Shown here one piece after another: positions 25,611 to 42,458 of a stretch of 64,000 bases of DNA. A program made the translations under genes and the position numbers. The stretch is from Bacteroidota bacterium (GTDB taxonomy: Bacteria; Bacteroidota; Ignavibacteria; Ignavibacteriales; Melioribacteraceae): assembly GCA_021824635.1 (NCBI GenBank), contig JAKAKD010000001.1, forward strand, positions 2,351 through 66,350. The letters are read 5' to 3'. The stretch's first letter is position 1; every line of letters starts with the position of its first letter. Below the pieces are notes generated by a model. The model was given only the letters and a program-made list of their open reading frames with translations, was not told the origin of the DNA and searched no databases.

Positions 25611-25857
25611 ATATATACTTATTTAATTAGGAAATAGCTAAATTTTGACTGAAAAAATAAGGCGGAATTTTTCAAAAAGCAAATTATATTCTATATCAAA
25701 TTGTTCCTAATTCATATTGGTATTTTATCTGTATATATAACTTCTAAAGAGCAGCCAGTTTAACTGTTGAAACATGCTTCTTTGAGCTTAATTTGAATAG
25801 CCCTTCCTAAATGTTTATCTTTGCCACTAAATTTAGATGTGGAGTGAAATTAAGTTT

Positions 25858-27624
25858 ATGAAGTTTAATAAAAGAACACACACTTGTGGAGAGTTAAGAG
25901 AAACAAACATTGGTCAAAATGTTGTTTTAAATGGTTGGGTTGCAATACGCCGTGATCTTGGCGGAGTAATTTTTATTGAGATGCGTGACCGTCATGGAAT
26001 AACTCAAGTTGTGTTTGAACCAAACTATAATTTAGAATCGCATGAGCAAGGGAAAAAATTACGAAGCGAGTATGTAATTTCTATAGAAGGTAAAGTTAGA
26101 AAACGCCCTGAAGGAACCGAGAACCTTTCGTTACCTACCGGACAAATAGACGTTATGGTAGATAAACTGATTATTCTTAATCAAGCAGAAACTCCGCCAT
26201 TCCCAATAGAAGACGGAATTGATGCACATGAAGATCTGCGTCTAAAATATCGTTATCTGGATCTTCGTCGAAATGAAATGCAAAAAAATCTTTTGCTTCG
26301 GCACCAGATGTATCAAATCACAAGGAAATACTTCGATGCGAATGGCTTTGTTGAAGTTGAAACTCCGATTTTAATGAAAAGTACCCCCGAAGGCGCGCGC
26401 GATTTTTTAGTCCCGAGCCGCATGCATAAAGGGAAATTTTATGCTCTACCGCAATCACCGCAGACTTACAAACAAATTTTAATGGTTGCCGGTATTGACA
26501 GATATTTTCAAATTGTAAAATGTTTCCGTGATGAAGATTTACGTGCCGACCGACAATACGAGTTTACACAGATAGACGTAGAAATGTCTTTTGTTGATGT
26601 TGAAGATATATTTGAAATAGTTGAAGGATTGATGAAAAACTTTTTCAAAGAAATTCTTAACCTAGAAATTGTTTCTCCAATTCCTCGTTTAAGTTTTAGT
26701 GAAGCTATGGAAAAATATGGAAGTGATAAACCAGACCTCCGCTTTGCGCTTGAAATGGTTACGCTAAATGAAGTTTTTGCAAAATCTGAATTCAGAGTTT
26801 TCAAAGAATCTGTGGCAAACAACGGAATTATAACAGCATTACTTGCAAAAGGATGTGGAGATTATACTAGAAATCAATTGGATGTTCTTACCGACTTTGT
26901 AAAAAAACTTGGTGCGGGCGGCTTAATCTGGATGCGTGTGAAAGAAAATGAACTTGAAGCGCCAATAGCAAAATTCTTATCTAGTGAAGAAAAAGAAAAT
27001 TTAATTAAGAAAATGAATGCTGAACCAGGAGATCTTTTATTTATTCTAACTGGTCCTAAACTTAAGACCCTTTCTTTAATGGGTTCATTACGTTTGGAAA
27101 TGGCTAAGCGAATGAATTTGATATTGCCCGGTGCAAAGCCATCTTTACTTTGGGTTACGGATTTCCCATTATTCGAGTGGGATGAAGAAACAAAACGGCT
27201 ATATGCAATGCACCATCCCTTTACTTCGCCTAGGGTAGAAGATATTCCTCTAATGGAAACAGATCCGTCAAATGTTAAAGCGCGTGCATATGATTTGGTA
27301 ATGAATGGAAATGAAATTGCGGGTGGAAGTATTCGAATTCACGATTCTGTTTTACAGTCAAAGATGTTTAAAACATTGGGAATTAGTGATGAAGAAGCCC
27401 AGGAGAAGTTTGGATTTTTGATGGGCGCATTCAAATATGGCGCTCCTCCTCATGGAGGTATAGCATTCGGTTTTGACCGGTTAGCTATGCTCTTTGCCGG
27501 AAGGGCTTCAATTAGAGATGTGATTGCATTCCCCAAAACTTCAAGCGGTATATCTTTGATGGATGAATCACCTTCTACAGTTGATGATTCACAATTAACA
27601 GAGCTACATATTAGAATCAAATAG
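25858..27624 (+). CDS. aspS: aspartate--tRNA ligase
   Basis: OB-fold N-terminus (CGELR...V.L.GWV...RD.GG.IF), motif 2 FRDEDLRADRQ.EFTQ and motif 3 GGIAFGFDRL. The track start at 25837 is also possible. Confidence 0.93.
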   Translation: MKFNKRTHTCGELRETNIGQNVVLNGWVAIRRDLGGVIFIEMRDRHGITQVVFEPNYNLESHEQGKKLRSEYVISIEGKVRKRPEGTENLSLPTGQIDVMVDKLIILNQAETPPFPIEDGIDAHEDLRLKYRYLDLRRNEMQKNLLLRHQMYQITRKYFDANGFVEVETPILMKSTPEGARDFLVPSRMHKGKFYALPQSPQTYKQILMVAGIDRYFQIVKCFRDEDLRADRQYEFTQIDVEMSFVDVEDIFEIVEGLMKNFFKEILNLEIVSPIPRLSFSEAMEKYGSDKPDLRFALEMVTLNEVFAKSEFRVFKESVANNGIITALLAKGCGDYTRNQLDVLTDFVKKLGAGGLIWMRVKENELEAPIAKFLSSEEKENLIKKMNAEPGDLLFILTGPKLKTLSLMGSLRLEMAKRMNLILPGAKPSLLWVTDFPLFEWDEETKRLYAMHHPFTSPRVEDIPLMETDPSNVKARAYDLVMNGNEIAGGSIRIHDSVLQSKMFKTLGISDEEAQEKFGFLMGAFKYGAPPHGGIAFGFDRLAMLFAGRASIRDVIAFPKTSSGISLMDESPSTVDDSQLTELHIRIK

Positions 27625-27778: not shown

Positions 27779-27794
27779 TGGTCTGAATATTGAC
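27779..27794 (+). promoter_or_regulatory. weak candidate sigma54-type element upstream of pilin-like gene A
   Basis: TGGTCTGAATATTGAC has GG and TTG at the -24/-12 spacing, but the -12 reads GA instead of GC. It lies about 79 nt upstream of GTG 27873. Confidence 0.25.
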
Positions 27795-27872
27795 TCAACT
27801 GGAGCGTAATCGTAATTCTAAAATAGAATTTAACGGAAAAAATTACCAGCTATAGTTTTCTTGGAGATGTTT

Positions 27873-28265
27873 GTGGGTCAGCAACAGTTATTATTACTTG
27901 CACTTGGTGTTATTGTTATTGGTATTGCAATTGTTGTTGCCATCGGCGTATTTAATGCGAGCGCAATGGAATCTAACCGGGAAGCAGTAATTGCAGACTT
28001 AACAAACATTGCTTTAACGGCACAACAATATTATAGGAAAGCAGCAATTTTAACTGGCGGTTCTAATTCATTCACCGGTTGGATAATTCCACCTGGTTTG
28101 TTACAGACATTAAATATGAGTACTGCGGTAACTGCCACAATAGCCGCTCAATCGGTAACTTTAGTTGGTCTTGGTACGGAAATAGGCAAAAATGGTTCTT
28201 CTGTAGTTGGAGTAACAATGGTTGTTGGACCGAATGCGATTATTTCAACAACTGTAAATAATTAA
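27873..28265 (+). CDS. atypical type IV pilin-like protein A (N-terminus MGQQQLLLL)
   Basis: GTG 27873 is preceded by GGAGA at 5-6 nt spacing and gives the same N-terminus as paralog B. A ~25-aa hydrophobic helix is followed by an amphipathic segment (REAVIADLTNIALTAQQYYRK) and a Thr/Val-rich beta region. The track start at 27861 adds MEMF. Confidence 0.65.
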   Translation: MGQQQLLLLALGVIVIGIAIVVAIGVFNASAMESNREAVIADLTNIALTAQQYYRKAAILTGGSNSFTGWIIPPGLLQTLNMSTAVTATIAAQSVTLVGLGTEIGKNGSSVVGVTMVVGPNAIISTTVNN

Positions 28266-28323
28266 GATTTGTTTTAATTATATCACTTTCAAATGTGTAC
28301 TAAGAATATTTTAGAATAATTTA

Positions 28324-28339
28324 TGGCACAGTTAATGAT
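28324..28339 (+). promoter_or_regulatory. weak candidate sigma54-type element upstream of pilin-like gene B
   Basis: TGGCACAGTTAATGAT has a perfect -24 TGGCAC, but the -12 reads TGA rather than TGC. It lies about 99 nt upstream of ATG 28438. Confidence 0.3.
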
Positions 28340-28437
28340 TTATAAAATAAAGGGAAATATCTTTACACAAATTTATATAATTAATACGGGTTCTATTTTC
28401 TTTTAACTAATCAACAACAATAAAAGGAGTTACAAAA

Positions 28438-28827
28438 ATGGGTCAACAACAATTATTACTTATCGTTCTCGGCGTTATCATTGTCGGTATCGCTGTTGTA
28501 GTTGGTATCAATGTTTTTACCGCAAGTGCGGCTTCATCCAACCGTGATGCAGTTATTGCTGATTTAACAACAATTGGTTCCATGGCACAAGGATATTACA
28601 GAAAACCAACAGCGCTTGGTGGCGGAAATAATACATTTACCGGTTGGGTAGTACCGGCACAATTAGCACAAACATCAAACATGAGTGCAGCTGTTACACC
28701 AACTGTTGCAGCACAATCGGTAACTCTTGTTGGTGTTGGCACAGAAACAGGCAATGACGGTTCTACCAAGGTTAAGGCTACTATGACGGTAACACCTACT
28801 GCTATGACAACAGTAGTAGATAATTAA
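28438..28827 (+). CDS. atypical type IV pilin-like protein B (N-terminus MGQQQLLLI)
   Basis: The ATG is preceded by AAGGAG at 8-nt spacing. An in-frame TAA 30 nt upstream excludes a longer leader. About 60% identical by eye to paralog A. No Cys residues. Confidence 0.75.
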   Translation: MGQQQLLLIVLGVIIVGIAVVVGINVFTASAASSNRDAVIADLTTIGSMAQGYYRKPTALGGGNNTFTGWVVPAQLAQTSNMSAAVTPTVAAQSVTLVGVGTETGNDGSTKVKATMTVTPTAMTTVVDN

Positions 28828-28855
28828 TTTTTAATTGGAATTTTCTTAAATTGAA

Positions 28856-28886
28856 AGCCGGTAGAACATAGTCTATCGGCTTTTTC
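28856..28886 (+). terminator. intrinsic terminator/attenuator between pilin-like gene B and the PilC-like gene
   Basis: AGCCGGTAGA / TCTATCGGCT 10-bp stem followed by TTTTTC. Confidence 0.7.
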
Positions 28887-28907
28887 ATTTAATAAAGAAA
28901 TATCACA

Positions 28908-30251
28908 ATGATTGAAACTAGATTTACTGCGCAAAAGCCAAACGGTCAAAGTATTAGTGGAAGTTTTAGTGAACCTTCATTTGGTGAAGCTAAGAAAAAG
29001 ATTCAAAAATTTGCCGAAAAAAATCAGCTCAAAATTCAAAAAATTGAGAAGAAAGTCGGCTACGTTTATAAAATTAAACGCGGTAAAGAAAAACCGATCA
29101 CAGGCGAACAGAGAGCTTTCAATAAAGATGAGGTTGTAAATGCTCTTCGTAAACTTGGCTACGAAGTAATCTCGGTCAATAGAAAATATTTAGAATTTAA
29201 TTTCAAACCACCACAGCAAGATATCGTTTCGTTTGTAAAAATAAGCGCGGAACTGTTAGAGCAAAAACTACCTTACAGTGAAATTCTAACTTTACTTATC
29301 AATGATACCTCGAACAAATCTCTCAAAGAAGCTCTAAAGCAGATTAACAATGAACTGAAAAAAGGCGCTGATAGTGAAACCACTTTTTTGCGTTATCAAT
29401 CTGTGTTTGGAAAGTTCACCGCATATATGCTTGGTTTAGCATCGAAGAGCGGTAATATGTCGGAAATTTACAAAGCAACCGCAAAGTTTTTAGAAAGACA
29501 GCAAGAGTTTAAAAAGAATTTGCGAAGCGCGCTTATTACTCCAATGGTAACTCTGTTTGTGCTTTTTCTTGCGGTACTATTTTATGTGGGATATATTTTT
29601 CCGGCAACAGCAAAGCTGTTTGTAAAGTTTGATATACCTTTGCCGCCAATGACGGCAGCTACCTTGAAGATCAGTAATTTTCTAATGGCGAATGGTTTAT
29701 TAGTAACGATTGTTTGCTTAGCCCCGCCGATTGCGATTTGGCAATTTAGTAAAACAAAAAAAGGGAGATTATTTTTTGATCGCTATATGCTCAAGATACC
29801 TGTTATGGGTTCCCTAATTCATAAAACATGTATTGAAGTTTTTTGCCGCGTATTTTATACTTTATATAGCGGTTCAGCCGAAAGCATAGAACCCATTCGA
29901 ATTGCAGCCGAAGCTACCGGAAATGTATATTTTGAACAGCAGATAAAAAACATTGCAATTCCTTTAATGATTAAAAAAGGTGTTGGAATAACGGAATCAT
30001 TTGAAGCTAGCGGAGTATTTACCGAAACTGCATTATCAAGATTTCACTCCGGCGAAGAAACCGGAACAATTAAAAATACCGCTTTTCAGCTGGCAAATTA
30101 TTATGAAAGTGAAACAGTATTCAGATTAAAAAACGTTATTGAACTTATTCAAGTTGGAATAGCAATGGTTATTATGATAGTGATGATTGGACTTACTCTA
30201 ATATCGGCTGAAACAGCAACCATTAATCCAAAATCACCATCAATGAAATAA
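28908..30251 (+). CDS. pilC: type IV filament platform protein (PilC/GspF family)
   Basis: Two T2SSF-type repeats separated by TM segments, with a third TM at the C-terminus. The N-terminal cytoplasmic region is of the GspF type (F.A....G....G). Confidence 0.8.
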   Translation: MIETRFTAQKPNGQSISGSFSEPSFGEAKKKIQKFAEKNQLKIQKIEKKVGYVYKIKRGKEKPITGEQRAFNKDEVVNALRKLGYEVISVNRKYLEFNFKPPQQDIVSFVKISAELLEQKLPYSEILTLLINDTSNKSLKEALKQINNELKKGADSETTFLRYQSVFGKFTAYMLGLASKSGNMSEIYKATAKFLERQQEFKKNLRSALITPMVTLFVLFLAVLFYVGYIFPATAKLFVKFDIPLPPMTAATLKISNFLMANGLLVTIVCLAPPIAIWQFSKTKKGRLFFDRYMLKIPVMGSLIHKTCIEVFCRVFYTLYSGSAESIEPIRIAAEATGNVYFEQQIKNIAIPLMIKKGVGITESFEASGVFTETALSRFHSGEETGTIKNTAFQLANYYESETVFRLKNVIELIQVGIAMVIMIVMIGLTLISAETATINPKSPSMK

Positions 30252-30274
30252 ATAATATTAAGGAAGAATTAACA

Positions 30275-32062
30275 ATGATTGATGCTCAGCTTGAAATGAC
30301 CGATAAGATTGGTTACTTGCTCTTAAAGAAAGGAATAATTGATCACAAAATTTTAGAAGAATCTCTTAAAATTAAAGATGCCGATCAGACAAAGTTGAAA
30401 AGAAATCTTGCACAGATTTTAGTTGATGAGTTTAAATTTGACCACGATATTATTTTTAGAGAAGTTGCAGTACTCTACGCGTTCAAAGAATTAAATGTCC
30501 GTCCGGAAGAACTTTCCGATGAACGTATTGCAGAAATAAAAAACTTGATGACCCGTCAAGGCGACGATGTAAAAAAAATGCTTCTTACTCACCGGGTAAT
30601 TCCATTCAGATACGACGATAAAATTAAAGATAAGTTAATTCTTGCGGCAGTTGATCCCACAGACAGAAATCTTGCTAAAGTTGCTTATACCTTAAACGTA
30701 AAAAAATACGAAATAAATTATCTTCGAAAAAAAGATTACGATAAACTAGTTGCAATTCTTGCACCGACTGAAAATGAATATCTAAAAATGATTCAAGAAG
30801 CTGGTGAAGAGATTCAAGTAGTTCAAGATGAAGCTTCGGTTAATGAAGAAGAACTTGATGCAGAAATTAATAAGAGCGCACTTGTAAACCTTATTGAAGC
30901 AGCGTTGGTCGAGGGAACCCGTAAAGGTGTCAGCGATATTCATTTAATTCCCAAGTCCGGAAATAAAACAGAAATTCATTTCCGTCTTGATGGAAAATTA
31001 ATGCTTTGGCATACACAAGAAGGAACTTTACCGGAAGCTGTTATGGCAGTTGTAAAAGATAGATCAAAAGGGCTCGATCGTTTTGAACGTGAAAAAGCTC
31101 AAGACGGCTTTATTCAGCGTGAAATAGATGGACACATAATTCGTTACAGAGTTTCTGTTTTACCTATGGTGGGAACTGAATTAAAAAATAAATTTGAAAG
31201 CGTTGTAATAAGAATTCTAGACGATAGAAAAGTAATACGCGATCTAGGCAAACTTGGCCTTACCGGTTATGCGCATACTGCTTTTGCTAAAGCAATTAAT
31301 CAACCGCAGGGAATGATTATTCTAACAGGTCCAACCGGAAGCGGAAAATCAACCACTCTTGTTGCCGCTTTATATCAAGTTATCACGCCGGAAAAAAATG
31401 TTCTTACAGTAGAAGATCCAGTAGAATATGTTATTGAAGGCGCTCGGCAGTTAAAGATTGGCTACAAAATGAATTTTGAACAAGCAATCAGATCAATTCT
31501 ACGTCACGATCCGGACATTGTTCTGGTTGGTGAAATGCGTGATAAAGAAACAGCAGAGACAGCTATAAAGCTTGCAAACACAGGTCACTTAACTTTCTCA
31601 ACACTTCACACCAACGATGCACCAAGTGCCGTTGCGCGTTTGTTCAAAATGGGTGTAGAACCATTTTTGATTGCTTATGCAATTAATATTATTGTTGCTC
31701 AACGTCTCATAAGAAAACTTTGTGAGAACTGTAAGAAAAAAGTTACAAACCTAGAAGAACATATTCTTCCTTCCGGTCTAGACATTAAAGAATGGACCGG
31801 CGCCGAAATTTATGAAGCTGTTGGATGCGATAGATGTAATCACACAGGATATAAAGGCAGAATGGCAATTCATGAAGCACTCTATTTCACAAAAGAAATC
31901 AGAAGAGCAATTGTTCAATCTGGAGAAGATGTTGATGAGGAAGCAATTCGTACACAGGCAAGACTGGATGGAACTATGAGTTTGAGAGATTCCGGCTTTG
32001 AAAAAGTTAAACTTGGATTAACCTCAATCCAGGAAGTTATTGGCGCAACGATGGAAGACTAA
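30275..32062 (+). CDS. pilB: type IV filament assembly ATPase (PilB/GspE family)
   Basis: Walker A GPTGSGKST, Walker B DPDIVLVGEMRD, His box TGHLTFSTLHTNDA and a tetracysteine CENC...CDRC. The N-terminal T2SSE_N-like domain carries a degenerate MshEN-type motif. Confidence 0.9.
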   Translation: MIDAQLEMTDKIGYLLLKKGIIDHKILEESLKIKDADQTKLKRNLAQILVDEFKFDHDIIFREVAVLYAFKELNVRPEELSDERIAEIKNLMTRQGDDVKKMLLTHRVIPFRYDDKIKDKLILAAVDPTDRNLAKVAYTLNVKKYEINYLRKKDYDKLVAILAPTENEYLKMIQEAGEEIQVVQDEASVNEEELDAEINKSALVNLIEAALVEGTRKGVSDIHLIPKSGNKTEIHFRLDGKLMLWHTQEGTLPEAVMAVVKDRSKGLDRFEREKAQDGFIQREIDGHIIRYRVSVLPMVGTELKNKFESVVIRILDDRKVIRDLGKLGLTGYAHTAFAKAINQPQGMIILTGPTGSGKSTTLVAALYQVITPEKNVLTVEDPVEYVIEGARQLKIGYKMNFEQAIRSILRHDPDIVLVGEMRDKETAETAIKLANTGHLTFSTLHTNDAPSAVARLFKMGVEPFLIAYAINIIVAQRLIRKLCENCKKKVTNLEEHILPSGLDIKEWTGAEIYEAVGCDRCNHTGYKGRMAIHEALYFTKEIRRAIVQSGEDVDEEAIRTQARLDGTMSLRDSGFEKVKLGLTSIQEVIGATMED

Positions 32063-32132
32063 TTTTACAATGCTTATTATATTTAAATAAAGTATTTTAT
32101 ACTATGCTTTTCACCAATTAAGACGGTTACTC

Positions 32133-33359
32133 TTGATGATTGCAGATGCAAAACAAGTCCTCACGGCATTTACCACAAAAATTCCTACAACTATCTTAGG
32201 TCCGGAAAGAGTTCGATATATTATCGAGCATATTAACGAACTTCAAGTTGAACAAAAAATGCTTCTGCTTAATTTAATGAATGATATTTTGGGGATGATG
32301 ATTGAACGTCAGGCATCGGACATTGAAATCGGAGGATTCGGCGCTCAAAATTTTGTATGGATGAGAATATTTGGAAAAAAAGAACGCGTAAAAGATCTTC
32401 CTCAGTTTTCCGAAGATGAAGCATCAACACTAATAATTTCTTTGTTGAACAAGACCCAATGCGAGATGCTTTTATCGGAAAGGAATTTGGATTTTAGTTA
32501 TTCTTTCAAGTATGATAAAGTTCAAGCTGTAGTTCGTTTTCGTGCAGATGCTTATTTTGATCTTGATAGTGTGGCTTTAAATATGCGTTATATACAAGCC
32601 AGAATTCGTCCAATTGAATCTCTCGAATTTCACCCATTCGCAATTAAAATGATGAGCCACAATTACATAAAGTTTGGGCTATCATTAATAACTGGAATTA
32701 CCGGTTCTGGTAAATCCGCCACACTTGATGCAATTATTGATTATCACAACGATTCCGATCCTTGTCATATTGTAGTTATTGCTTCGCCTGTGGAGTTTGT
32801 CCACAAATCACGCGCGTCAATTATCAAGCATAGAGAAGTTGGAAGAGACGTAACGTCATTCAAAGATGGAGTAATTCAATCATTACGCCAGGATCCGGAC
32901 ATAATAGTAATTGGAGAAATGCGCGATCCGGAGACTATTCTATCGGCGCTGGAAGTTACAGATACCGGACACAAAGTCTTTTCAACACTTCACACATCAT
33001 CTGCCACCGAGTCCATTGATAGAATAGTTGCAGAAATACATCCAACTGAACAAGAACGTGTTAGGAATAGGCTGGCAGATGTCTTAATTTCGGTAGTTTC
33101 TCAGAAGCTTATACCTAGTTTAGACGGCAAACGTGTTCTTGCAAAAGAGGTTCTAATTGTTACTCCTTCTGTTAAAGCGGCAATTAAGAATAACAATACA
33201 AGTGAAATTTACATGATGATTAATCAAGGTGCTCCGCAAGGCATGATTACGATGGAACAAGATTTGCTACGTTTATATGCGGAAAGGAAGATTTCTAAAG
33301 AAAATGCTGTCTCTTATGCCAATAATAAAACAAGAATTTTACAATTGATGAAAGGGTAA
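32133..33359 (+). CDS. PilT/PilU-like hexameric ATPase (putative retraction motor) with N-terminal extension
   Basis: Walker A GITGSGKSAT, Walker B DPDIIVIGEMRD and His box TGHKVFSTLHTSSA. No tetracysteine. 408 aa versus about 345 for canonical PilT. Confidence 0.75.
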   Translation: MMIADAKQVLTAFTTKIPTTILGPERVRYIIEHINELQVEQKMLLLNLMNDILGMMIERQASDIEIGGFGAQNFVWMRIFGKKERVKDLPQFSEDEASTLIISLLNKTQCEMLLSERNLDFSYSFKYDKVQAVVRFRADAYFDLDSVALNMRYIQARIRPIESLEFHPFAIKMMSHNYIKFGLSLITGITGSGKSATLDAIIDYHNDSDPCHIVVIASPVEFVHKSRASIIKHREVGRDVTSFKDGVIQSLRQDPDIIVIGEMRDPETILSALEVTDTGHKVFSTLHTSSATESIDRIVAEIHPTEQERVRNRLADVLISVVSQKLIPSLDGKRVLAKEVLIVTPSVKAAIKNNNTSEIYMMINQGAPQGMITMEQDLLRLYAERKISKENAVSYANNKTRILQLMKG

Positions 33360-33360
33360 G

Positions 33361-34917
33361 TTGAAACAGGTTGTATGTCTATATAATGAAGGAACCGATG
33401 CAAAAGTTGCTGTTTTATCCAAAGATAATAACGGCGTCAAAGTTCACCGTGTATCGTCTTTAACGGTATCGCGTTCAATCATATCTTCTTCTAAAAAAGA
33501 AGTAATGGTTGAACTAGAAAATAATGTGATGGATACCGATTTGTCTTTCGATAACCTGGAATCAGTAAGTACTGTAGATTCTCAATCGCGCGAAAGAGCA
33601 GATGTTGAGTTGCTTGACGAAGCTTTACATGATTTGAAATTGCGTAATATGCTCTTCATTCCTGTAGTAACCGAACCGATAGTAAACTACCATTCATACG
33701 ATGGACCGCGCAGTATAAATAAGAAAAAATTAATTCAGTCGGTAATTAACGATCTTCAAGCAACCAAAGGAATTTCAGTAACTGAGGACTTGGTTGATGT
33801 TACCGAAATGAATGAAAAATCAATGCTTGGAGTTTTTCTTGAAGGAGATATGCCCAGTGTTGATTTGATAGGTCAACTTGCTAATTATAATAAAAGGCGT
33901 TACCTAAAAATTCCAACAATAAAAACCGCTGAACTTTCTCTTGCTTATTATGTCTCAAAATCAACAAAATTTTTCCCCGAGGATAACTCGCTTATTGTTT
34001 ACATTGGAAAAGAATACAGCAAACTAATTTTTCTTGAAGGACAAAAATTAAAACATATCGGTTCGCCTTTAGACATCGGTACAAAGAATCTTCATACATA
34101 CGATGTTTATTTTTCTAAGATTCTACTCGAAATGGAAAACGGCGGTATTCCGAAACTCGATAATATTATTCTTTGCGGCGAAGACCGATCAGAAAATTTA
34201 ATTCTTTCCTTCTATGGAACATTTCCGGAAGCGAATGTATCGGAACTAAAATTTGAGAATTTCGATTCAACAGGACTTAACGAAGAAGATCAGAAAAATC
34301 TTGCTCTATACGCAGTTCCAATTTCGGCCGGTATCGAATATTTTGATGAATTAGATAAGACACATGTTGGTGTAAATTTTCTTCCAAAATATATTCAAGA
34401 GAATCAAAAGTTTTTACAATTCGGATGGCATAGCTACGCATTAATGCCATTCTTATTCGGCGCGGCATTCTTCTTTACTTTCAAAACACTTTCCAATTTT
34501 AGAAATATAAAAGAATTGGATTTTGAAATTGAACGGCTTAATCAGCGACAAATACAAAATCAAGCACTTGTTCAACAAATTACTCCGCTCGAAACTCGAA
34601 TAAATAGTTTTGATGCAACACAGAAAATTATTGATGATGCCAGCGAAGGCGCGGGGTTGTGGAATAAGTCTCTTGGCAAGATTTCTGATTTTGCTGAAAC
34701 GAGAAGAAATTTCTGGGTTAGCAAAATCGAACCGATTTCTAAAGACGAAATTAAACTTACCGGATATTCATTATCCCGAAGTGTTCTGACTGAATTTGCC
34801 GGCATTAATAAAGCATCGCTTCTAAAAAATATCAATTTTGAACCGCTAAGAGAGAAGAGCGCTTTCTCATATACACTTAATTTAAGATTACAAAACGATA
34901 CTACGAAGACTAAATGA
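33361..34917 (+). CDS. PilM-PilN-like fusion protein (actin-like cytoplasmic domain, TM, coiled coil)
   Basis: A ~350-aa cytoplasmic N-terminal domain is followed by a single TM (YALMPFLFGAAFFFTF) and a coiled-coil/periplasmic segment (EIERLNQRQIQNQALVQQI). Position and architecture match the PilM plus PilN roles. Sequence motifs are weak. Confidence 0.5.
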   Translation: MKQVVCLYNEGTDAKVAVLSKDNNGVKVHRVSSLTVSRSIISSSKKEVMVELENNVMDTDLSFDNLESVSTVDSQSRERADVELLDEALHDLKLRNMLFIPVVTEPIVNYHSYDGPRSINKKKLIQSVINDLQATKGISVTEDLVDVTEMNEKSMLGVFLEGDMPSVDLIGQLANYNKRRYLKIPTIKTAELSLAYYVSKSTKFFPEDNSLIVYIGKEYSKLIFLEGQKLKHIGSPLDIGTKNLHTYDVYFSKILLEMENGGIPKLDNIILCGEDRSENLILSFYGTFPEANVSELKFENFDSTGLNEEDQKNLALYAVPISAGIEYFDELDKTHVGVNFLPKYIQENQKFLQFGWHSYALMPFLFGAAFFFTFKTLSNFRNIKELDFEIERLNQRQIQNQALVQQITPLETRINSFDATQKIIDDASEGAGLWNKSLGKISDFAETRRNFWVSKIEPISKDEIKLTGYSLSRSVLTEFAGINKASLLKNINFEPLREKSAFSYTLNLRLQNDTTKTK

Positions 34918-35801
34918 GCAGCAAAGTTAAAAATACAATCATCATTCTGGTAATCTTTATTATGATCGGGCTCAGTAGCGTTGCGTATAACTTTGTTTAT
35001 CAAAAAGCGAAAATAAGCGAGAAGCAGAAAAAAATTAAAGACCTAAAACTTTATCAGCTTGATACCGAATCATTGAATATGCAGCTTGCTTTATTAACAA
35101 AACGTGTTGCAGAACTGGATTCTGTTTTAGCAAACAGAAAGTACAACATTCCATTCAACGTGTCTCAAGCTTCTTTCTTCGATTTTGTAAATCAAGTCAG
35201 CTATGGTTTCTCGTCACATTCATATGTCAATATTGAGTTCAATGAAACAGAGACCGGAACGAATTTTAATATTTTTCACTACACATTAAACGGCATTGCA
35301 GAATTCAACGATCTGATAAAATTAATTTATGCTATTGAAGAGAGTAAGCAGTTAAAGAAAATCGAATCACTTGAATTGTCTAACAACGTTCAAGTTGATG
35401 CCGATGGCACTCCTCATTATTTGGTCAATTATAAATTTAAGGCCAAAATTTATTTCTCCTCGGATAATAGATTTTTTGTAAAGGATTTGAAAGAGAATTC
35501 TATTATTCCTAATCCGGCATACGATTTCTTCTATCCGTTAATCCGAAATGAAATACCGCCTAACAAAGATAAATTGCTGGATGTTCAATCCGCCCAGTTG
35601 TTAGCATTAATACCAGACGGAGCGTTCCTGGTTGATGCTAGCGGAAATACTTATCTATTGTGGGAAGGTGATCAGGTTTATCTGGGATATCTTACTAACA
35701 TAAATTACCAGAATACCGAAGTGAATTTTGTTCTGAATAAAGGCGGCATCATTGAGAATGTTACTTTGAAACTAGTAAAAGAAAAAAAACTGAGTAAATA
35801 A
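34914..35801 (+). CDS. PilO-like bitopic alignment-complex protein
   Basis: N-terminal TM (IIILVIFIMIGLSSVAY), a coiled coil (KISEKQKKIKDLK...LALLTKRVAELD) and a periplasmic domain. It overlaps the upstream gene by 4 nt. Confidence 0.45.
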   Translation: MSSKVKNTIIILVIFIMIGLSSVAYNFVYQKAKISEKQKKIKDLKLYQLDTESLNMQLALLTKRVAELDSVLANRKYNIPFNVSQASFFDFVNQVSYGFSSHSYVNIEFNETETGTNFNIFHYTLNGIAEFNDLIKLIYAIEESKQLKKIESLELSNNVQVDADGTPHYLVNYKFKAKIYFSSDNRFFVKDLKENSIIPNPAYDFFYPLIRNEIPPNKDKLLDVQSAQLLALIPDGAFLVDASGNTYLLWEGDQVYLGYLTNINYQNTEVNFVLNKGGIIENVTLKLVKEKKLSK

Positions 35802-35802
35802 A

Positions 35803-37056
35803 ATGAAAAAGCTAATTACAATTTTAATCCTATTCGTGTTAACGTTTACTGTTAACGCGCAGATTGATTTACAAGATAAATTAAAGGGTGCCGTAAACCC
35901 GGATGAACTGGTTTCACTTTCCGAAACAATTACATTTGATCAAGCTATTCAAGTGCTGAGTAAGGTAAGTGAAAAAATCACCGGCAAAAAAATTATCTCC
36001 ACTGTTAATCTTACAACTCCCATTGGAGTAGAAATTGACAAATGGCCATATAAAAAAGCACTCTTCGTTATTGTCCAATATAACAATCTAATAGTTGATG
36101 AAACCGAATCCACTGTAATTATTAAAAGAAAAGATGAATCCAAAACTAAATTAGCAAAAGAAACTTACGCTCCCATAGATGAACGAGAAGTTAAAATTTC
36201 TGCTGTGCTCTTCGAAGCGAATATTGATGATCTTCGTGAAAGAGGAATTAACTGGGAATTTCTGCTGTCCCAATCTGGTCTTTCAATCGGAACTAAAATA
36301 ATTACACTGCAAGAACAACAGCAGCAACAAGCATCCTCGGCGACAAGTACAACAATAATTCAAAAACCACCAACGTATGAAATTAATAACAGTACAAATT
36401 TTACAACGGGTAAATGGGATGGAACAGCTACCGGGTTATTCAGATTTTTAGAAACAAATAACTTAGGAGAAATTATTGCTCGTCCTATAATCACAGCAAG
36501 AGATGGTGTTGAAGGCAAAACACAAATTGGCAATGACTTTTCAATAAAAGAAAGAGATTTTGCAGGTAACCTTATAGATAAATTTTATCCGACCGGAACT
36601 ATCATTACCGCCACGCCGCACATCTTCAATGAACAGGGAATAACTTACGTTCTTCTTAAATTAAATATTGAACGAAGCAGTGTAGTTGCAAGAGACGCTC
36701 TTAGTACGAATGTAAGCAAAAATGTTGTAACCACAGACGTTCTTCTTCTAGACGGAGAAGAAACTGCTATCGGCGGCTTGTTTGAAAATCAAGAAATTTC
36801 AGTCCGCAGAGGAATTCCATTTCTAAAAGATCTTCCTTGGTGGGTATTCGGTATTCGCTATTTAACCGGCTACGATTCTCAAGAGACAGTCAGAAAAGAA
36901 GTTATTATGCTAATCAAAGCGGAATTGCTGCCGTCACTTAAAGACAGAATCGAAAAAATTAAAGAAGATTCCGCGTTGCGTGATATACGTCAGGAGAATT
37001 TTGATAAGATGGAGAAATACAAAAAGCAGTTTGAGAAAAAAGAAGACCCAAAATAA
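35803..37056 (+). CDS. short secretin (type II/III secretion system secretin family, PilQ-like)
   Basis: Signal peptide and a C-terminal secretin domain (ETAIGGLFENQEISVRRGIPFLKDLPWWVFGIRYLTG...VIMLIKAELL). It is only 417 aa and carries a QEQQQQQASSATS linker. Confidence 0.8.
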   Translation: MKKLITILILFVLTFTVNAQIDLQDKLKGAVNPDELVSLSETITFDQAIQVLSKVSEKITGKKIISTVNLTTPIGVEIDKWPYKKALFVIVQYNNLIVDETESTVIIKRKDESKTKLAKETYAPIDEREVKISAVLFEANIDDLRERGINWEFLLSQSGLSIGTKIITLQEQQQQQASSATSTTIIQKPPTYEINNSTNFTTGKWDGTATGLFRFLETNNLGEIIARPIITARDGVEGKTQIGNDFSIKERDFAGNLIDKFYPTGTIITATPHIFNEQGITYVLLKLNIERSSVVARDALSTNVSKNVVTTDVLLLDGEETAIGGLFENQEISVRRGIPFLKDLPWWVFGIRYLTGYDSQETVRKEVIMLIKAELLPSLKDRIEKIKEDSALRDIRQENFDKMEKYKKQFEKKEDPK

Positions 37057-37210: not shown

Positions 37211-40200
37211 ATGAAACTTAATTACCGTTTAATATTGATAACTCTTTTAATCGTTCTATTCATCTCGGTTATTTCAACTTTCATATTCTATTCGCTAGCC
37301 GGCAGACTATTAATGCAGCAGCAATCCAAGAATATTCTTAACTCTGCAAACGACTTTGCTTTTGTTTTTCAAAATGAACTTAGCAAAGTAGAAGAAGATT
37401 TTAAGAAAATTGCGCCGCGTATAAACAAATTCGACCAGATAAATTTAGATTCTACCGCAATAGATTTTTGTTTTACACTCGTAAACGACTCACTTATTAA
37501 TACGCACGAGTTCAAGATTAAAACCAAATCATATCTGAATATACGATCATCATCGTTCCGCCAGTTCTTCTCGGATAATCCAAATGTTGTTCTAAGATAT
37601 GCACAATTCCCAAGCGGTAGAACAGTTTATTACGGCAATCAAATATCATCGGATTTTCTAAACCGCATTTCGCAAAAAATTCGGGCGGAAGTTGCGCTTG
37701 TAATAAATGATTCCCCGGTTGAAATTTCCAATCCAGATAAAAATCAGATTCACCTTCTGGCGGTTATAAATGCCGTACGCGAATTAAAATTTAAAAACAG
37801 CTTCGATCTTTACACTAACGAATATGAAAACGCAGATTTTTATGCCGCGCTCTTTTTGCCAAAATCTTTTCTTACGCCCGGCGCTAAATTAAATTTTATT
37901 GTCTTCAATGTTTTTAAGGAAGGCGTAGAATTTCGCGACACTTTACGGATTGTAATGGTTATTATTGTAATTGCCGGAAGCGCAATTACATTTCTTATAG
38001 TTTTAGGATTCACCATCAAATTGAGAAAACAAATTTCACTACTTAGTGAAGCTGCCGAGATAACAGGAAAAGGAAATCTAGACCACAGGGTAAAAATAAT
38101 TACGAAAGATGAAGTCGGCAGACTAGGCGAGACTTTTAATAAAATGCTCGATGAACTTGTGCTGAATAAGAAGAATGAAAAAGAATATTCGGAATTTATT
38201 ACTCTCATCAATCAAAATCCGACAATGAAAGAAATATCGGATGCGGCACTAGCAAAAATTATCAAATCCACGGGCTTAACTTTTGGTGTGTTGTATATTG
38301 TCGAAAATAAAGCGCTTAGGTTAATTTCATCTTTTGGCGTTAGTCAAAATATTGTTGAGATGACACAAAATGCCGATCTATACAGTAATGCCATTGATAA
38401 AAAAGAGAAAGTTGAATTTCATTTTCACGATAACTTCCCCGAAATAAAAACCGGCATAGCTACAATCAAAATAAAATATTTAACCATTTATCCGATTGTT
38501 TATAATAAGGAAACAATTGCAGTGCTTGAACTTGCTTCGGAATCGGCTCCTCGTGAAGAAGTTCTGAATTACATATCTATTATTCATGACCAGCTTGCCG
38601 TTGGAATTACTAATGCAAAATCGTTTGAACAGCTCGAAAATTTTGTAAACGAATTGAAAAAACTAAACGAAGAATATCAGAAACAAAATCAGCATATAAT
38701 TGAGCAGAACAGTCAGTTAAAAGAACTTCACAGAGAATTGAAAGAGAAAGCGGGCGAATTAGAAAAACAAAGAGCCAAGGCGGTTGAACTGACTAGAGTG
38801 AAGTCGGATTTTCTTGCAAGTATGTCGCATGAACTCCGCACACCGCTGATATCAATTCTTGGCTTAACAGAATTGCTGATTAAAGATACGCTCGTTACAT
38901 CAAGAACAAAGGACCGCCTAAATATCGTTCACCGCAACGGCGAAAAACTTCTTGGGCTTATTAATAATATTCTCGAGTTCTCAAAATTTGAATCGGGCAA
39001 GATTGAAATTAAAAAAGAAAGCTTCTTGCTAAGCGATCTTCTCAAAGAATTAAATCCAAATATCAAACATCTAACATCAGAGAAGAACCTTAAATATATT
39101 TTGGAAATTGAAAACAACTCAAATGCATTAATAAATTCCGATAAGGGCAAATTGGAACAAATACTTCTCAATTTACTTGTCAATGCAGTTAAGTTTACGG
39201 AAAATGGTTCGATTAAATTATCAGTAAATATTTTGAGCGGGAAAGATATTGAGTTTATTGTTACAGACACCGGAATAGGAATTACCGAAGAACAACAAGA
39301 AGTAATATTTGGCGAGTTCCGTCAAGTTGACAGCAGCACTGCAAGAAAATATGGCGGCGCGGGATTGGGACTGGCTATTTGTAAAAAGTATATTGAATTA
39401 TTAGGTGGCGTTCTACAACTAAAAAGTGAAATCGGGAATGGGTCGAGTTTTTATTTCACATTATCAGATTCTGTGCTCGATGTTTTTGATAATCCTGATC
39501 ATAAATTTTTAACCCTTTCGGAAGATCTTAATGACGACGAAGATGCAGAATTAATATTAATCATTAATGCCAATACGGATTCTCTAAGACTTATCGGCGA
39601 TTACCTCGCATCGTATAACTATAGAATTATAACTACAGCCAGCAGCACAGACGGAATCCGCTTAGCGAAAGAAAAACTCCCGGCAGCAATTGTTCTGGAT
39701 CCTCTAATTCACGATCAAAATGTTTGGAATATCATTCTTGAACTAAAAAACAATTTAACAACGCGGAATATTCCGATCATTATTACAATGATTATTGAGG
39801 AAGAGAAAGTAGGTTGGGAGCCGGAAATTTTTGATTTTATCTCTTCCCAAGTTGAGCGTGATGATTTTGAGAATCTGATTAAAGAAGTTGAGTTACATTT
39901 TGATAATCAAATTCGGAAAATTGTAATTCTAGAGAAAGATGATACCGGTTATAAAAAACTTGTAAATATTTTCGGTGAGAAGTATGAATTCCTATTGTTG
40001 AATTCAGTAGACGCGGTTAAACAAAAGATTAAAGAAGAGAATCCGCAGCTGATTTTAATTGATATGGAATCGTTCAATATAGAAGCTCTGCAGGTAAGTT
40101 TTGATTTGTCCCGGCAAAGATTCACTAAAAATATTCCAATCGTTTTTAAACTTCCTGGTGAGTTTGATGACAAACTAAGTAAAGCGCTCAATTCAAAATT

Positions 40201-40753
40201 GAGAGAAATAACATTGAAAATAAAAGCTCACCCTTTGGATGTTCTGAAAATATTGCGTGACCGCTTAAAAATTGACGATGATACAACAAACAAAAAAATT
40301 AATTTAATTGAAGAACCGTTCCAGAAGAATGATCCGGAGCAGTACAGCAAGAGTATTGAATACAACGCGAAAACCAAACCGACTATTCTTATTGTTGATG
40401 ATGATAATGATGCGCTTTTTACCATCGGAGAATTTGTAAAAGAATTAAACTGCGATACAATTTTTGCCCACAATGGAATGGAGTGTTTGTTAACACTTAA
40501 CCATGTTCAGCCGGATCTAATATTTCTTGATATAATGATGCCGCAGATGGACGGTTTTGAAACTATCAAGCGGATCCGCGGTGATGAGAAATTCGCCAAA
40601 ATTCCGGTTATTGCTTTAACTGCATATGCAATGCTTGATAATAAAAATATTATTGAAAAAAATGGTTTTAATGATCTGGTGACAAAACCGATTAATTCTA
40701 AAATCCTTGCCGCCAAGATGAGTAAATTCCTTTTATCTAAAGTTGATAAATAA
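37211..40753 (+). CDS. large hybrid sensor histidine kinase (2 TM periplasmic sensor, HAMP, GAF-like, HisKA, HATPase_c, two degenerate REC-like domains, one canonical REC)
   Basis: HAMP (ITGKGNLDHRV...DEVGRLGETFNKM), H-box SHELRTPL, G-box DTGIGI...GGAGLGLAICK and C-terminal REC (ILIVDDDND...DLIFLDIMMPQMDG...K). The two central receiver-like modules lack the acidic pocket. Confidence 0.85.
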   Translation: MKLNYRLILITLLIVLFISVISTFIFYSLAGRLLMQQQSKNILNSANDFAFVFQNELSKVEEDFKKIAPRINKFDQINLDSTAIDFCFTLVNDSLINTHEFKIKTKSYLNIRSSSFRQFFSDNPNVVLRYAQFPSGRTVYYGNQISSDFLNRISQKIRAEVALVINDSPVEISNPDKNQIHLLAVINAVRELKFKNSFDLYTNEYENADFYAALFLPKSFLTPGAKLNFIVFNVFKEGVEFRDTLRIVMVIIVIAGSAITFLIVLGFTIKLRKQISLLSEAAEITGKGNLDHRVKIITKDEVGRLGETFNKMLDELVLNKKNEKEYSEFITLINQNPTMKEISDAALAKIIKSTGLTFGVLYIVENKALRLISSFGVSQNIVEMTQNADLYSNAIDKKEKVEFHFHDNFPEIKTGIATIKIKYLTIYPIVYNKETIAVLELASESAPREEVLNYISIIHDQLAVGITNAKSFEQLENFVNELKKLNEEYQKQNQHIIEQNSQLKELHRELKEKAGELEKQRAKAVELTRVKSDFLASMSHELRTPLISILGLTELLIKDTLVTSRTKDRLNIVHRNGEKLLGLINNILEFSKFESGKIEIKKESFLLSDLLKELNPNIKHLTSEKNLKYILEIENNSNALINSDKGKLEQILLNLLVNAVKFTENGSIKLSVNILSGKDIEFIVTDTGIGITEEQQEVIFGEFRQVDSSTARKYGGAGLGLAICKKYIELLGGVLQLKSEIGNGSSFYFTLSDSVLDVFDNPDHKFLTLSEDLNDDEDAELILIINANTDSLRLIGDYLASYNYRIITTASSTDGIRLAKEKLPAAIVLDPLIHDQNVWNIILELKNNLTTRNIPIIITMIIEEEKVGWEPEIFDFISSQVERDDFENLIKEVELHFDNQIRKIVILEKDDTGYKKLVNIFGEKYEFLLLNSVDAVKQKIKEENPQLILIDMESFNIEALQVSFDLSRQRFTKNIPIVFKLPGEFDDKLSKALNSKLREITLKIKAHPLDVLKILRDRLKIDDDTTNKKINLIEEPFQKNDPEQYSKSIEYNAKTKPTILIVDDDNDALFTIGEFVKELNCDTIFAHNGMECLLTLNHVQPDLIFLDIMMPQMDGFETIKRIRGDEKFAKIPVIALTAYAMLDNKNIIEKNGFNDLVTKPINSKILAAKMSKFLLSKVDK

Positions 40754-40756
40754 AAA

Positions 40757-41437
40757 ATGAAAAAAATATTAATAATAGATGATTACCCGGATAATGTTTT
40801 TCTTCTTCAAGACAGACTTGAAAAGGAAGGATTTGAAGTGATAAAGGCATATCACGGTGAAACTGGAATCCAAAAAGCGATTGAAGAAAAACCTGATCTG
40901 ATCCTTTTAGATATCATGATGCCCGATATTTCAGGTTTTGAGGTTTGCAAAATATTGACAGCAAATCAAGAGACAAAGTTAATTCCGATAATTCTTCTTA
41001 CCGCGTTGACCGAAGCCGATAGTCTTAAACAGGGTTTGTCGGCAGGCGCATTCGATTATATTAAAAAACCTTTTAACAGAACAGAACTTATTGCAAGAAT
41101 TAATTCCGCTCTGCGTTTTAGTGAAACAAATAAGATACTTCTTGAAGTAGAAAAGATAAAGACCTACGCCGCAACTGTTGTTACCGCTAATCACGAAATA
41201 AAACAGCCGCTCACTTTAATTAATTTATCTACAGCGGCAATCCGCCGGGAAATATCCAAACCGGACTTCTCCAATGAAGTTATATTGAAGCGAGTTGAAT
41301 TTATTGAAAACGCCGCAAAAGATATTATCAACGTGTTGGATAAACTCGGTTCGATTAAAAAACCTGTAATTACTCCTTACGTAAATGATCTCAACATAAT
41401 AGATTTAAAAGCTGTGGAAGGAAAGTTACCCAATTAA
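40757..41437 (+). CDS. response-regulator receiver fused to a HisKA-like (DHp) domain, without an ATPase domain
   Basis: Canonical REC (ILIIDDYPDN, DLILLDIMMPDISG, KP) followed by an H-box-like TANHEIKQPLTLINL. The ORF ends about 75 aa later with no N/G boxes. Confidence 0.75.
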   Translation: MKKILIIDDYPDNVFLLQDRLEKEGFEVIKAYHGETGIQKAIEEKPDLILLDIMMPDISGFEVCKILTANQETKLIPIILLTALTEADSLKQGLSAGAFDYIKKPFNRTELIARINSALRFSETNKILLEVEKIKTYAATVVTANHEIKQPLTLINLSTAAIRREISKPDFSNEVILKRVEFIENAAKDIINVLDKLGSIKKPVITPYVNDLNIIDLKAVEGKLPN

Positions 41438-42457
41438 TTCGCGTACCAGCGAAAGTAACTCTTCAAAGTTGTATGGCTTGTTTATAATTTTATTCACATT
41501 AACTTTATCAATCTTGCCGCTATCTGTAGGCGAACCCGAAGCGAGAATAATTGGAATATTGTAATTCGCAGATGAAATTTCTTGAATGCATTCAAGTCCG
41601 TCCATTTCTGGCATTTTTCTGTCAATAATCAATAAGTCGGGCATTCTAACTTTTAACGTTTCCAAAACTTCAATTCCGTTAGAAGAAGTAAGAACAGTGT
41701 AATTATATGATTGGAGAAGTTCCGCAAGAAGTTCTCTCAGTATATCTTCATCTTCAGCAATCAATATTGTTTTCCCGCTGTCGTTAGAGTGCTGTGTTGC
41801 CGTGTGTGCAGCTTCTAGAGTGAGTATAAACTCAGTGCCTTTCTCAGGTTCACTTACAACAGCAATTGTTCCGCCGTAATTCTCAATAATCTTTTTTACA
41901 ATTGATAAACCGATCCCGGACGCGGTCTTTTTAGCTTTTGTGGAAAAATCTTCATCAAAAACAAACGGAAGAATCTCTTTATCAATTCCTTTCCCGCTGT
42001 CTTTAATTCGAAGTTCAACTCTCGTCCCGTCATCTATATTTGATGTGGTAAAAGAAATAACTCCCGTTGTATCAATTGATTCGATAGAATTTGTCAGCAA
42101 ATTGAGAATAACCCGGTAGTAGTCAGAATATTTTCCGAGTACAAGTTTTAGATCCGGTTCGAGAGTCAGCTTAAAATCAATTTTTCCTTTTTGCTGAATC
42201 AAAAATGAACGGACAATATCGCTTGTAACTGAATTTAAATTTATTCTTCTAAGATTATTGTTTTTGGATTTATCGCCAAAATTATCGCCTATCATTTCTG
42301 ACGCAAGGTAAGTTCCGGCTTCTATACTGTTGAGGATTGGTAGAATATCTGATGAACTTGAGACTTTTCTTTTTAGAAGATCGATACTATTTAGAATGCG
42401 TGTGAAAATATTATTTAAATCGTGTGCAAGATGTTTTGTGGATGAATCGGTGCTCAT
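41426..42457 (-). CDS. soluble hybrid histidine kinase (HisKA, HATPase_c, REC) without a sensor domain
   Basis: H-box LAHDLNNIFTRIL at the extreme N-terminus, G-boxes DSGKGI and ASGIGLSIVKKIIENYGG, and C-terminal REC (ILIAEDEDIL, DLLIIDRKMPEMDG). No TM. Confidence 0.85.
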   Translation of the reverse strand: MSTDSSTKHLAHDLNNIFTRILNSIDLLKRKVSSSSDILPILNSIEAGTYLASEMIGDNFGDKSKNNNLRRINLNSVTSDIVRSFLIQQKGKIDFKLTLEPDLKLVLGKYSDYYRVILNLLTNSIESIDTTGVISFTTSNIDDGTRVELRIKDSGKGIDKEILPFVFDEDFSTKAKKTASGIGLSIVKKIIENYGGTIAVVSEPEKGTEFILTLEAAHTATQHSNDSGKTILIAEDEDILRELLAELLQSYNYTVLTSSNGIEVLETLKVRMPDLLIIDRKMPEMDGLECIQEISSANYNIPIILASGSPTDSGKIDKVNVNKIINKPYNFEELLSLVRELIG

Positions 42458-42458
42458 T

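Follow-up and report, generated by a model that had tools for sequence, protein, structure and literature searches.

A conserved type IV filament locus of Melioribacteraceae with predicted leaderless pilin-like subunits and no prepilin peptidase gene nearby

A glycine at position -1 is a hallmark of prepilin peptidase sites, and the loci of mannose-sensitive haemagglutinin (MSH) pili, which are not known to include PilT, carry an MshI-type PilM/N-like fusion and a short MshL secretin. In reviews of type IV filaments (TFF), a prepilin peptidase and a class III signal peptide are taken to be universal and to define the class (PMC4471445, PMC6668835). In the survey of the TFF superfamily the peptidase is a core component, and the only exception noted is MSH, which relies on the PilD of another system to process its canonical prepilins (PMC6668835). 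In Cytophaga hutchinsonii and Flavobacterium, the cluster described as a "type II secretion system" (T2SS; CHU_3191-3202) includes an A24 prepilin peptidase (CHU_3197), a PF08334 pseudopilin and canonical minor pseudopilins, with no mention of PilT in the text of the paper (PMC5553014); this Bacteroidetes "T2SS" clusters with the type IVa pilus (T4aP) (PMC6668835). Here we analyse a compact eight-gene locus from a bacterium of the family Melioribacteraceae, found in a window of 64,000 nucleotides (contig JAKAKD010000001.1, positions 2,351 to 66,350; positions given below are those of the window). We read this locus, with moderate confidence, as a retractile T4aP-type machine that assembles leaderless pilins without processing by a prepilin peptidase. 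Its divergence lies in the family of pilins, and possibly also in their not being processed; the parts of the machine are ordinary and T4aP-like.

The first-pass annotation of this DNA had proposed a divergent TFF sub-class, a description that stands for the non-canonical subunits and is not supported for the motor and platform proteins, which belong to the T4aP/T2SS clade. As in T4aP, the locus encodes PilB, PilT and PilC, a PilM-like actin fold, putative PilN/PilO-like bitopic proteins and a PilQ-like secretin, and it has a terminator after a pilin gene and subunits of predicted lollipop architecture. Unlike those of T4aP, its subunits have no leader, no N_methyl motif, glutamine in place of Glu5 and no cysteine; PilM and PilN form one polypeptide, no PilP was identified, the genes lie in one operon-like cluster, the secretin has 417 aa against about 700 aa for PilQ with its AMIN, N0 and N1 domains, and neither pilD nor a minor pilin operon was seen near the cassette. 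Of the features of the TFF superfamily, a PilB/GspE ATPase and a PilC/GspF platform are present and the class III signal peptide is not. Such a peptide has a short charged leader with Gly-1 before a hydrophobic alpha1, usually with Glu5; the subunits here have the hydrophobic alpha1 and the predicted lollipop fold but no leader.

Among the other described systems, MSH is likewise encoded in a single locus without a prepilin peptidase; the present locus differs from it in having no canonical prepilins, and its matches to MSH models are low (secretin 42 bits against MshL, cut-off 250; MshEN E 0.048). The Amuc_1098-1102 genes of Akkermansia are similarly a divergent T4P-like cluster outside the Proteobacteria. 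Here the matches are weak and far below cut-off, namely residues 331-492 of the 518-aa protein to the PilM-like Amuc_1101 (E 4e-4, 19 bits against 650) and the secretin to the Amuc_1098 family (E 1e-5, 24 bits against 750), and no relation of the subunits was seen. We also considered whether the locus is a Cytophaga-type "T2SS", with which it shares membership of the Fibrobacteres-Chlorobi-Bacteroidetes (FCB) lineage, divergent pilins, unannotated PilM/N/O-like platform genes and polysaccharide-degrading hosts. Gene content rules this out, as the present cluster has PilT and contains no A24 peptidase, PF08334 protein or canonical minor pseudopilins.

Pilin-like subunits and their translation start

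The two genes at the 5' end of the locus encode small proteins that are 64% identical and open at the initiator codon with MGQQQLLL (V(M) from GTG in pilin A), followed by a hydrophobic helix of 22 residues. Neither has a match in Pfam or NCBIfam, N_methyl and TIGR02532 included. A type IV pilin "lollipop" fold is confidently predicted for both: in the alignment-based AlphaFold 2 (AF2) model of pilin B (predicted local distance difference test score, pLDDT, 93.2), a continuous helix from residue 2 to 55 lies on a 4-stranded sheet, and the best Foldseek matches of this model are type IV pilins (P. aeruginosa 1244 PilA, P1 pilin, and pilins of Acinetobacter and Shewanella), none of them reaching significance (E >=0.25). 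In PDB profile searches pilin B comes closest to the alpha1 helix of Geobacter PilA, with E 0.14. The subunits are thus pilin-like through predicted fold and context, without detectable homology.

The survey of start codons took in 125 pilin genes, drawn from the window and the genomes of about 60 species. For 122 of these, the stretch from the nearest in-frame stop on the 5' side to the start is free of ATG, GTG and TTG; this stop is a median of 4 codons away and at its closest directly adjacent (minimum 0), and 102 of the 125 are preceded by a Shine-Dalgarno-like motif. Because the start is forced in this way by the upstream stop, a leader peptide is impossible, and we conclude from the sequence that the subunits are leaderless. 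In the case of pilin A, the first-pass annotation had placed the start at 27779, which is impossible, since an in-frame stop lies 13 codons 5' of a GTG at 27873; this GTG, chosen by analogy with the family, has GGAG 7-10 nt upstream of it and yields a protein with one hydrophobic segment (residues 6-24). Pilin B, with its ATG, strong Shine-Dalgarno sequence (AAGGAG) and own terminator hairpin, is for these reasons probably the major subunit, and pilin A, with its GTG start, is probably of lower abundance. The hairpin that had been claimed after pilin B proved real: the structure at 28853-28884, followed by a U-run, has a dG of -20.1 kcal/mol (z -7.06), and none of 200 shuffled sequences was as stable. 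A consensus terminator scan did not list this hairpin, although direct folding did confirm it.

Pilin B has 4811 homologs, and its family comprises 2073 clusters at 50% identity (1277 with E <=1e-10). A metagenome-assembled genome of Melioribacteraceae carries an annotated protein identical to pilin B, Rosettibacter and Melioribacter roseus P3M-2 (MROS_0599) have homologs, and some family members are labelled PilE, PulG or FimT by JGI automatic annotation. The MGQQQLLL N-terminus is invariant in 25 relatives and occurs in 89 of the 150 best cluster representatives, almost all of them aligned from residue 1. When conservation was analysed by position in 107 family members, the first 8 residues were found to be ~93% conserved, as against ~39% for the C-terminal third (~100 clusters, 35-70% overall identity). 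With the initiator Met taken as residue 1, position 5 holds Gln in 103 members and Glu in 3, Gly2 is likewise found in 103 (~96%), and cysteine is absent in 76, pilin B among them. We infer that the untrimmed subunit aligns residue for residue with a mature pilin (F1-T-L-I-E5-L), Gln replacing Glu5. These subunits form a family that has not been described before and has no Pfam or NCBIfam model, and in the literature searched we found no description of leaderless pilins or of peptidase-free pili. Neither Melioribacter nor Ignavibacterium occurs in the supplements to the survey of the TFF superfamily (PMC6668835), and pili go unmentioned in the genome paper on I. album. As the subunits have no N_methyl or class III motif, tools keyed on such motifs would miss them.

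Copies of the globular part of the pilins (profile positions ~31-130), in some cases up to 5 in tandem, are also present in long proteins (P0243, 581 aa; P0252, 795 aa; P0267, P0291, P0297, P0304 and P0309) that have ordinary signal or lipoprotein-like N-termini and not the MGQQQ helix, so that this domain also exists outside pilins.

Machinery of the cassette and its conservation

PilC matches PF00482 (T2SSF; Pfam) in two stretches (E 2.4e-29) and scores ~140 bits against each of the NCBIfam models HofC, PilC and GspF, all under cut-off (GspF 139 against 424); its sole PDB match is M. xanthus PilC (E 2e-25). PilB matches PF00437 (T2SSE; Pfam) with E 1.1e-102, bears the cysteine motif CENC...CDRC, and reaches 404 bits with the PilB model TIGR02538 (equivalog cut-off 675) and 383 bits with the GspE model (cut-off 630). 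Against PDB chains it scores 288 bits with V. cholerae EpsE, 287 with M. xanthus PilB, 283 with Thermus PilF and 282 with Geobacter PilB, whereas the T4b ATPase BfpD gives only 108 bits and Tad and archaeal ATPases are also far lower. The third of these proteins scores 326 bits with the NCBIfam PilT/PilU model TIGR01420, over the cut-off of 319.1, and 188-228 bits with PDB PilT chains (Aquifex 228, P. aeruginosa 206), which by sequence makes it a bona fide PilT. Taken together, the scores of PilB, PilT and PilC assign the motors to the T4aP/T2SS branch. A motor and platform set outside the known clades is not supported, since PilT passes its cut-off and PilB scores equally against T4aP PilB and T2SS GspE.

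For the 518-aa protein, no match was found in Pfam, no significant one in NCBIfam, and none in the PDB by sequence or profile, and every one of its 902 homologs is unnamed or hypothetical. Its AF2 model (pLDDT 73) comprises an actin-like part (residues 1-331), a long helix (343-404) containing a hydrophobic segment, a further helix (419-447) and an alpha/beta, ferredoxin-like domain (451-509). When this model was submitted to Foldseek, the first match was P. aeruginosa PilM (5eoy, E 8e-14), followed by Thermus PilM-PilN (2ych). The predicted fold and these matches bear out the PilM-PilN-type fusion that had been proposed, and because sequence and profile searches were empty, it was the predicted fold alone that revealed PilM. 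The model implies a cytoplasmic actin-like domain, a membrane helix, a coiled coil and a periplasmic ferredoxin-like domain.

The next gene overlaps that of the PilM-PilN fusion by 4 nt, ends 1 nt 5' of the secretin gene and is translationally coupled on both sides. Its 295-aa product has a single transmembrane segment (residues 9-27) and no PDB match in sequence or profile searches. The family (27 members) has weak Pfam matches to a DivIC-type coiled coil (11/27) and to PilN (5/27, best E 0.01), and hhalign against the transmembrane segment and coiled coil of PilM-PilN gave E 7e-4 with a probability of 27%. A C-terminal domain of ~90 residues, which by eye looked PilP-like, was tried as a PilP candidate and rejected, all tests being negative: no Pfam PilP match was found in the 27 members, hhalign comparisons with PilP of P. 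aeruginosa and with a profile of 3 PilP sequences stayed at a probability of ~0.2%, and Smith-Waterman alignment with PilP gave z <=2.4 for the protein in the window and ~0 for three relatives.

The secretin matches PF00263 (Pfam, E 4e-21), has a Sec signal-like N-terminus and contains the poly-Gln run reported earlier (QQQQQ, residues 172-176, nt 36316-36330). Its profile matches PilQ of P. aeruginosa (2.4e-16), PilQ of M. xanthus (3.3e-16) and GspD (2.5e-15) in the PDB, over residues ~97-375, that is, the secretin domain and one N domain. It scores 71 bits against TIGR02515 (cut-off 284) and the AMIN domain is absent. The short secretin noted in the first-pass annotation, unlike the long multi-N-domain type, is therefore what the 417 aa and this alignment give. 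In M. roseus P3M-2 (CP003557, L010 17279-18576), the secretin gene is split, whereas a near-identical copy from a metagenome has it whole; the two differ by 1 nt in a homopolymer run (GGGC-A7 / GGGG-A6), through an error of sequencing or a genuine frameshift in the laboratory strain.

Relatives of the locus were collected with a PilM-PilN profile, which found 362 species-level genomes, and the best 80 loci were compared; all of these are from Melioribacteraceae or Ignavibacteria, and cultured isolates (Rosettibacter primus, Stygiobacter electus, Melioribacter spp.) are among them. The cassette proved to be conserved and is no chance arrangement, the order PilC-PilB-PilT-PilMN-295 aa-secretin being found in 80/80, with PilT in 79/80 and the 295-aa gene in 80/80. 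The wider order, from aspS through the pilin gene or genes and PilC to the secretin and a hybrid kinase, also recurs, genes that are missing from it being mostly lost at contig ends. Where enough upstream sequence was available, 59 of 62 loci have two (sometimes three) pilin genes directly 5' of PilC. Identical or near-identical copies of the locus are present in several public assemblies, and the same cassette, with two MGxQQLL pilins, lies on a 58% GC contig of an uncultured bacterium of the Bacteroidota (L093), where a REC-domain protein and a second PilB-like ATPase have been added upstream and three open reading frames (ORFs) stand between PilB and PilT (14306-16159). Conservation of the machine extends over Melioribacteraceae and further Bacteroidota sensu lato.

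In three loci (L028, L081 and L087) the PilC-to-secretin cassette has its full upstream flank and no pilin gene alongside, so that the subunits must there be encoded elsewhere.

Prepilin peptidase, proposed assembly and rival readings

Annotation of the window with Pfam covered all ORFs >=120 aa, and in agreement with the first-pass annotation no Peptidase_A24 was found among them. A sequence of P. aeruginosa PilD that gives 113 bits with Pfam A24_N_bact and 98 bits with Peptidase_A24, was then used as a phmmer query against the six-frame translation of the window and 92 related loci (1.65 Mb in all), and returned nothing at E <=10; in 80+ related genomes, the cassette is free of A24 and of GFTLIE-type minor pilins out to a distance of about 10 kb. 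The absence of GFTLIE-type minor pilins from the window was similarly borne out by an empty six-frame regular-expression search (G-[F/M/L..]-[T/S]-L-x-E), the class III N-terminal motif was also not found in the 92 related loci, and neither the window nor the flanks of these loci contain FimU-PilVWXE-type minor pilins with canonical N-termini. On the 58% GC contig, two extra ORFs (216 aa and 401 aa) start with M-G and then a hydrophobic helix, and are by sequence candidate leaderless minor pilins; minor pilins may thus exist elsewhere in the source genome of the window too. The genome paper of M. roseus (2013, annotation-based), the one such analysis published for a relative, reported neither pilA nor pilD, and since leaderless pilins adjoin pilC in CP003557, it evidently overlooked MROS_0599 and its neighbour.

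In the machine that we propose, PilB docked on PilC would polymerise subunits out of the inner membrane and PilT would depolymerise them, the fused PilM-PilN together with the 295-aa protein in the PilO position would form an envelope-spanning alignment complex, and the filament would exit via the short PilQ-like secretin. The primary translation product would already begin where a mature pilin begins. As there is no leader to remove, the subunits are proposed to be assembly-competent without an A24 peptidase, with at most the initiator Met removed. That filaments form and retract we infer, and peptidase independence is plausible but unproven. By analogy with cellulolytic relatives, the filament would probably serve for adhesion to, or twitching on, insoluble polysaccharide; DNA uptake would also be possible.

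That a whole lineage of TFF machines, spread widely among Ignavibacteria and present too in a group of high-GC Bacteroidota, has dispensed with prepilin peptidase is a wider reading that we hold as a serious if tentative possibility. In such a lineage the initiator Met would occupy the site of mature Phe1 and the neutral Gln5 that of Glu5, and a formylated or otherwise uncharged N-terminus may pair with the uncharged position 5 in the filament core; its pilins are translated leaderless, as probably are its minor pilins. If this is true, the four-part "universal core" of TFF (pilin, peptidase, ATPase, platform) is not universal, and leader cleavage is not mechanistically required for the extraction and assembly of pilins. 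A large leaderless pilin-fold family tied to a complete PilB/PilT/PilC/secretin machine in hundreds of species offers a direct natural test of the purpose of leader cleavage, N-methylation and Glu5, and explains the label "incomplete" given to Ignavibacteria pilus genes in genome papers. Cultured hosts exist (M. roseus, Rosettibacter and Stygiobacter electus), which opens the prediction to bench work.

Several points weigh against a peptidase-independent filament machine. The match of the pilin B model to solved pilins is not significant (best 6bbk, E 0.25, TM-score 0.45), and the N-terminus of the subunits has no positive charge to orient membrane insertion. The 295-aa protein is PilO-like by position, topology and weak matches only, and Pfam, hhalign and Smith-Waterman comparisons of this protein demonstrated no PilP equivalent. 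For whole genomes, the absence of A24 comes from one annotation-based statement of 2013 on M. roseus. No pili are reported for these organisms in the literature searched. Finally, the near-constant Gly2 (103/107) fits the Gly(-1) rule of prepilin peptidase sites.

The last of these points favours the main rival, a canonical T4aP with a distant pilD, in which an A24 peptidase would cleave a 2-residue "MG" leader after Gly2 and leave Gln3, possibly as pyroglutamate, as the first residue. As a rule the genes of a T4aP lie scattered, with pilD often a loner shared among systems (PMC6668835), some other Ignavibacteria have canonical Geobacter-like pilins (PMC7399161), and our A24 search was confined to the window and the surroundings of related cassettes. 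We nevertheless regard this reading as unlikely, because cleavage after Gly2 would put Leu at position 5, where in the uncleaved subunit the conserved Q/E sits, because no A24 was found in the 1.65 Mb around 90+ cassettes, and because pilD is reported absent from the complete genome of M. roseus. No described prepilin is known to have a 2-residue uncharged leader, and none was found in the literature searched.

A T2SS-like machine, in which a short periplasmic pseudopilus would push folded proteins such as glycoside hydrolases through the secretin, appears considerably less probable still. This reading is modelled on the function proposed for the Cytophaga/Flavobacterium "T2SS", a system required for cellulose use in Cytophaga (PMC5553014), and the present hosts also degrade polysaccharide; the M. 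roseus paper mentions a "type II secretion pathway". The equal scores of PilB against GspE and PilB, the short secretin, and the topology of PilM-PilN, which is that of GspL, point the same way. T2SS also resembles the present locus in its compact single cluster and in the topology of GspM, which is that of the next bitopic protein. It is opposed by the bona fide PilT inside the operon in all but one of the 80 loci, T2SS being typically without PilT (PMC6668835), by the preference of Foldseek for PilM structures, which it puts first, and by the lack of any family match to GspC, GspL, GspM, GspG-K or GspO. The A24 peptidase, PF08334 GspG and minor pseudopilins of the Cytophaga system, for which the text of the paper names no PilT (PMC5553014), are unmatched here as well.

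Finally, the small proteins could be Sec-exported periplasmic or surface proteins with a cleavable signal (A-S-A, residues 29-31), the true pilins being elsewhere or the machine defunct, and A29 and S30 are indeed nearly invariant, the small -3/-1 residues suit the signal peptidase I rule and the globular domain (~31-130) also stands behind ordinary signal or lipoprotein-like N-termini (P0243, P0252, P0267, P0297), but this is very improbable given first residues conserved to a degree unlike that of signal peptides, an n-region without positive charge, a hydrophobic stretch whose 22 residues are the length of a membrane anchor or pilin alpha1, a single continuous helix over residues 2-55 in the AF2 model (pLDDT >90), and the tight, consistent linkage of the pilin genes to PilC, PilB and PilT.

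Layout of the locus and neighbouring genes

The eight co-directional ORFs of the locus were all found on the + strand as the first-pass annotation had listed them, and its junction lengths (23, 70, 1, -4 and 1 nt) were reproduced. GC content is ~36% and flat across the window, so that composition gives no sign that the locus is foreign.

Table 1. Coordinates of the filament locus and flanking genes in the window
Feature	Coordinates	Strand	Remarks
aspS (aspartyl-tRNA synthetase gene)	25837-27624		directly upstream of pilin genes
Leaderless pilin-like subunit A (predicted)	27873..28265	+	130 aa, GTG start
Leaderless pilin-like subunit B (predicted)	28438..28827	+	129 aa, begins with ATG after a strong AAGGAG
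Intrinsic terminator or attenuator hairpin after pilin B	28853..28889	+	RNA folding
PilC/GspF-type inner-membrane platform	28908..30251	+	447 aa, PF00482
PilB/GspE-type extension ATPase	30275..32062	+	595 aa, PF00437, zinc motif CxxC...CxxC
PilT retraction ATPase	32133..33359	+	408 aa; gene callers begin at ATG 32136; TIGR01420
PilM-PilN fusion	33361..34917	+	518 aa, predicted fold
Bitopic protein in PilO position	34914..35801	+	295 aa; extra conserved C-terminal domain
Short secretin	35803..37056	+	417 aa, Sec signal peptide, poly-Gln insert, PF00263
Hybrid histidine kinase (1180 aa) and response regulator (226 aa)	37211..41437	+	HAMP, HisKA, HATPase_c, Response_reg

The upstream synteny with aspS is found in 45 of the 80 related loci and has no obvious functional link. 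Downstream, the window contains a dense block of regulators (37211-43802). To the hybrid kinase and response regulator this block adds a kinase/receiver of 343 aa, encoded on the opposite strand, and, also on the - strand, a sigma-54 activator of NtrC type (42459-43802). A kinase match is present in 74/80 loci, and the hybrid kinase lies directly downstream of the cassette in L002, L009 and L010 (M. roseus); a role of the hybrid kinase and response regulator in pilus regulation may be proposed from this arrangement.

A sigma-54 promoter 5' of pilin B (TGGCAC at 28324; 28324-28338), which would pair with the NtrC-type activator, was considered and set aside as a weak lead. The sigma-54 pattern has 44 matches in the window where 35.5 are expected, which is not above chance; of 121 intergenic regions 15 contain TGGCA[CT], where ~6.5 would be expected, and their -12 elements are poor, and many apparent matches in other loci fall inside the coding sequence of an upstream pilin. 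TGGCAC stands 60-115 nt 5' of the putative major pilin in L065, L071, L075, L077-L079 and L082.

A divergent orphan paralog of the pilins (P0361, MGSQQILL...) was also seen in an Ignavibacteriales genome, away from pilus machinery (L007 10001-12119; L008), where it lies directly 5' of genes for an extracytoplasmic function (ECF)-type sigma factor and a FecR/zf-HC2 anti-sigma protein.

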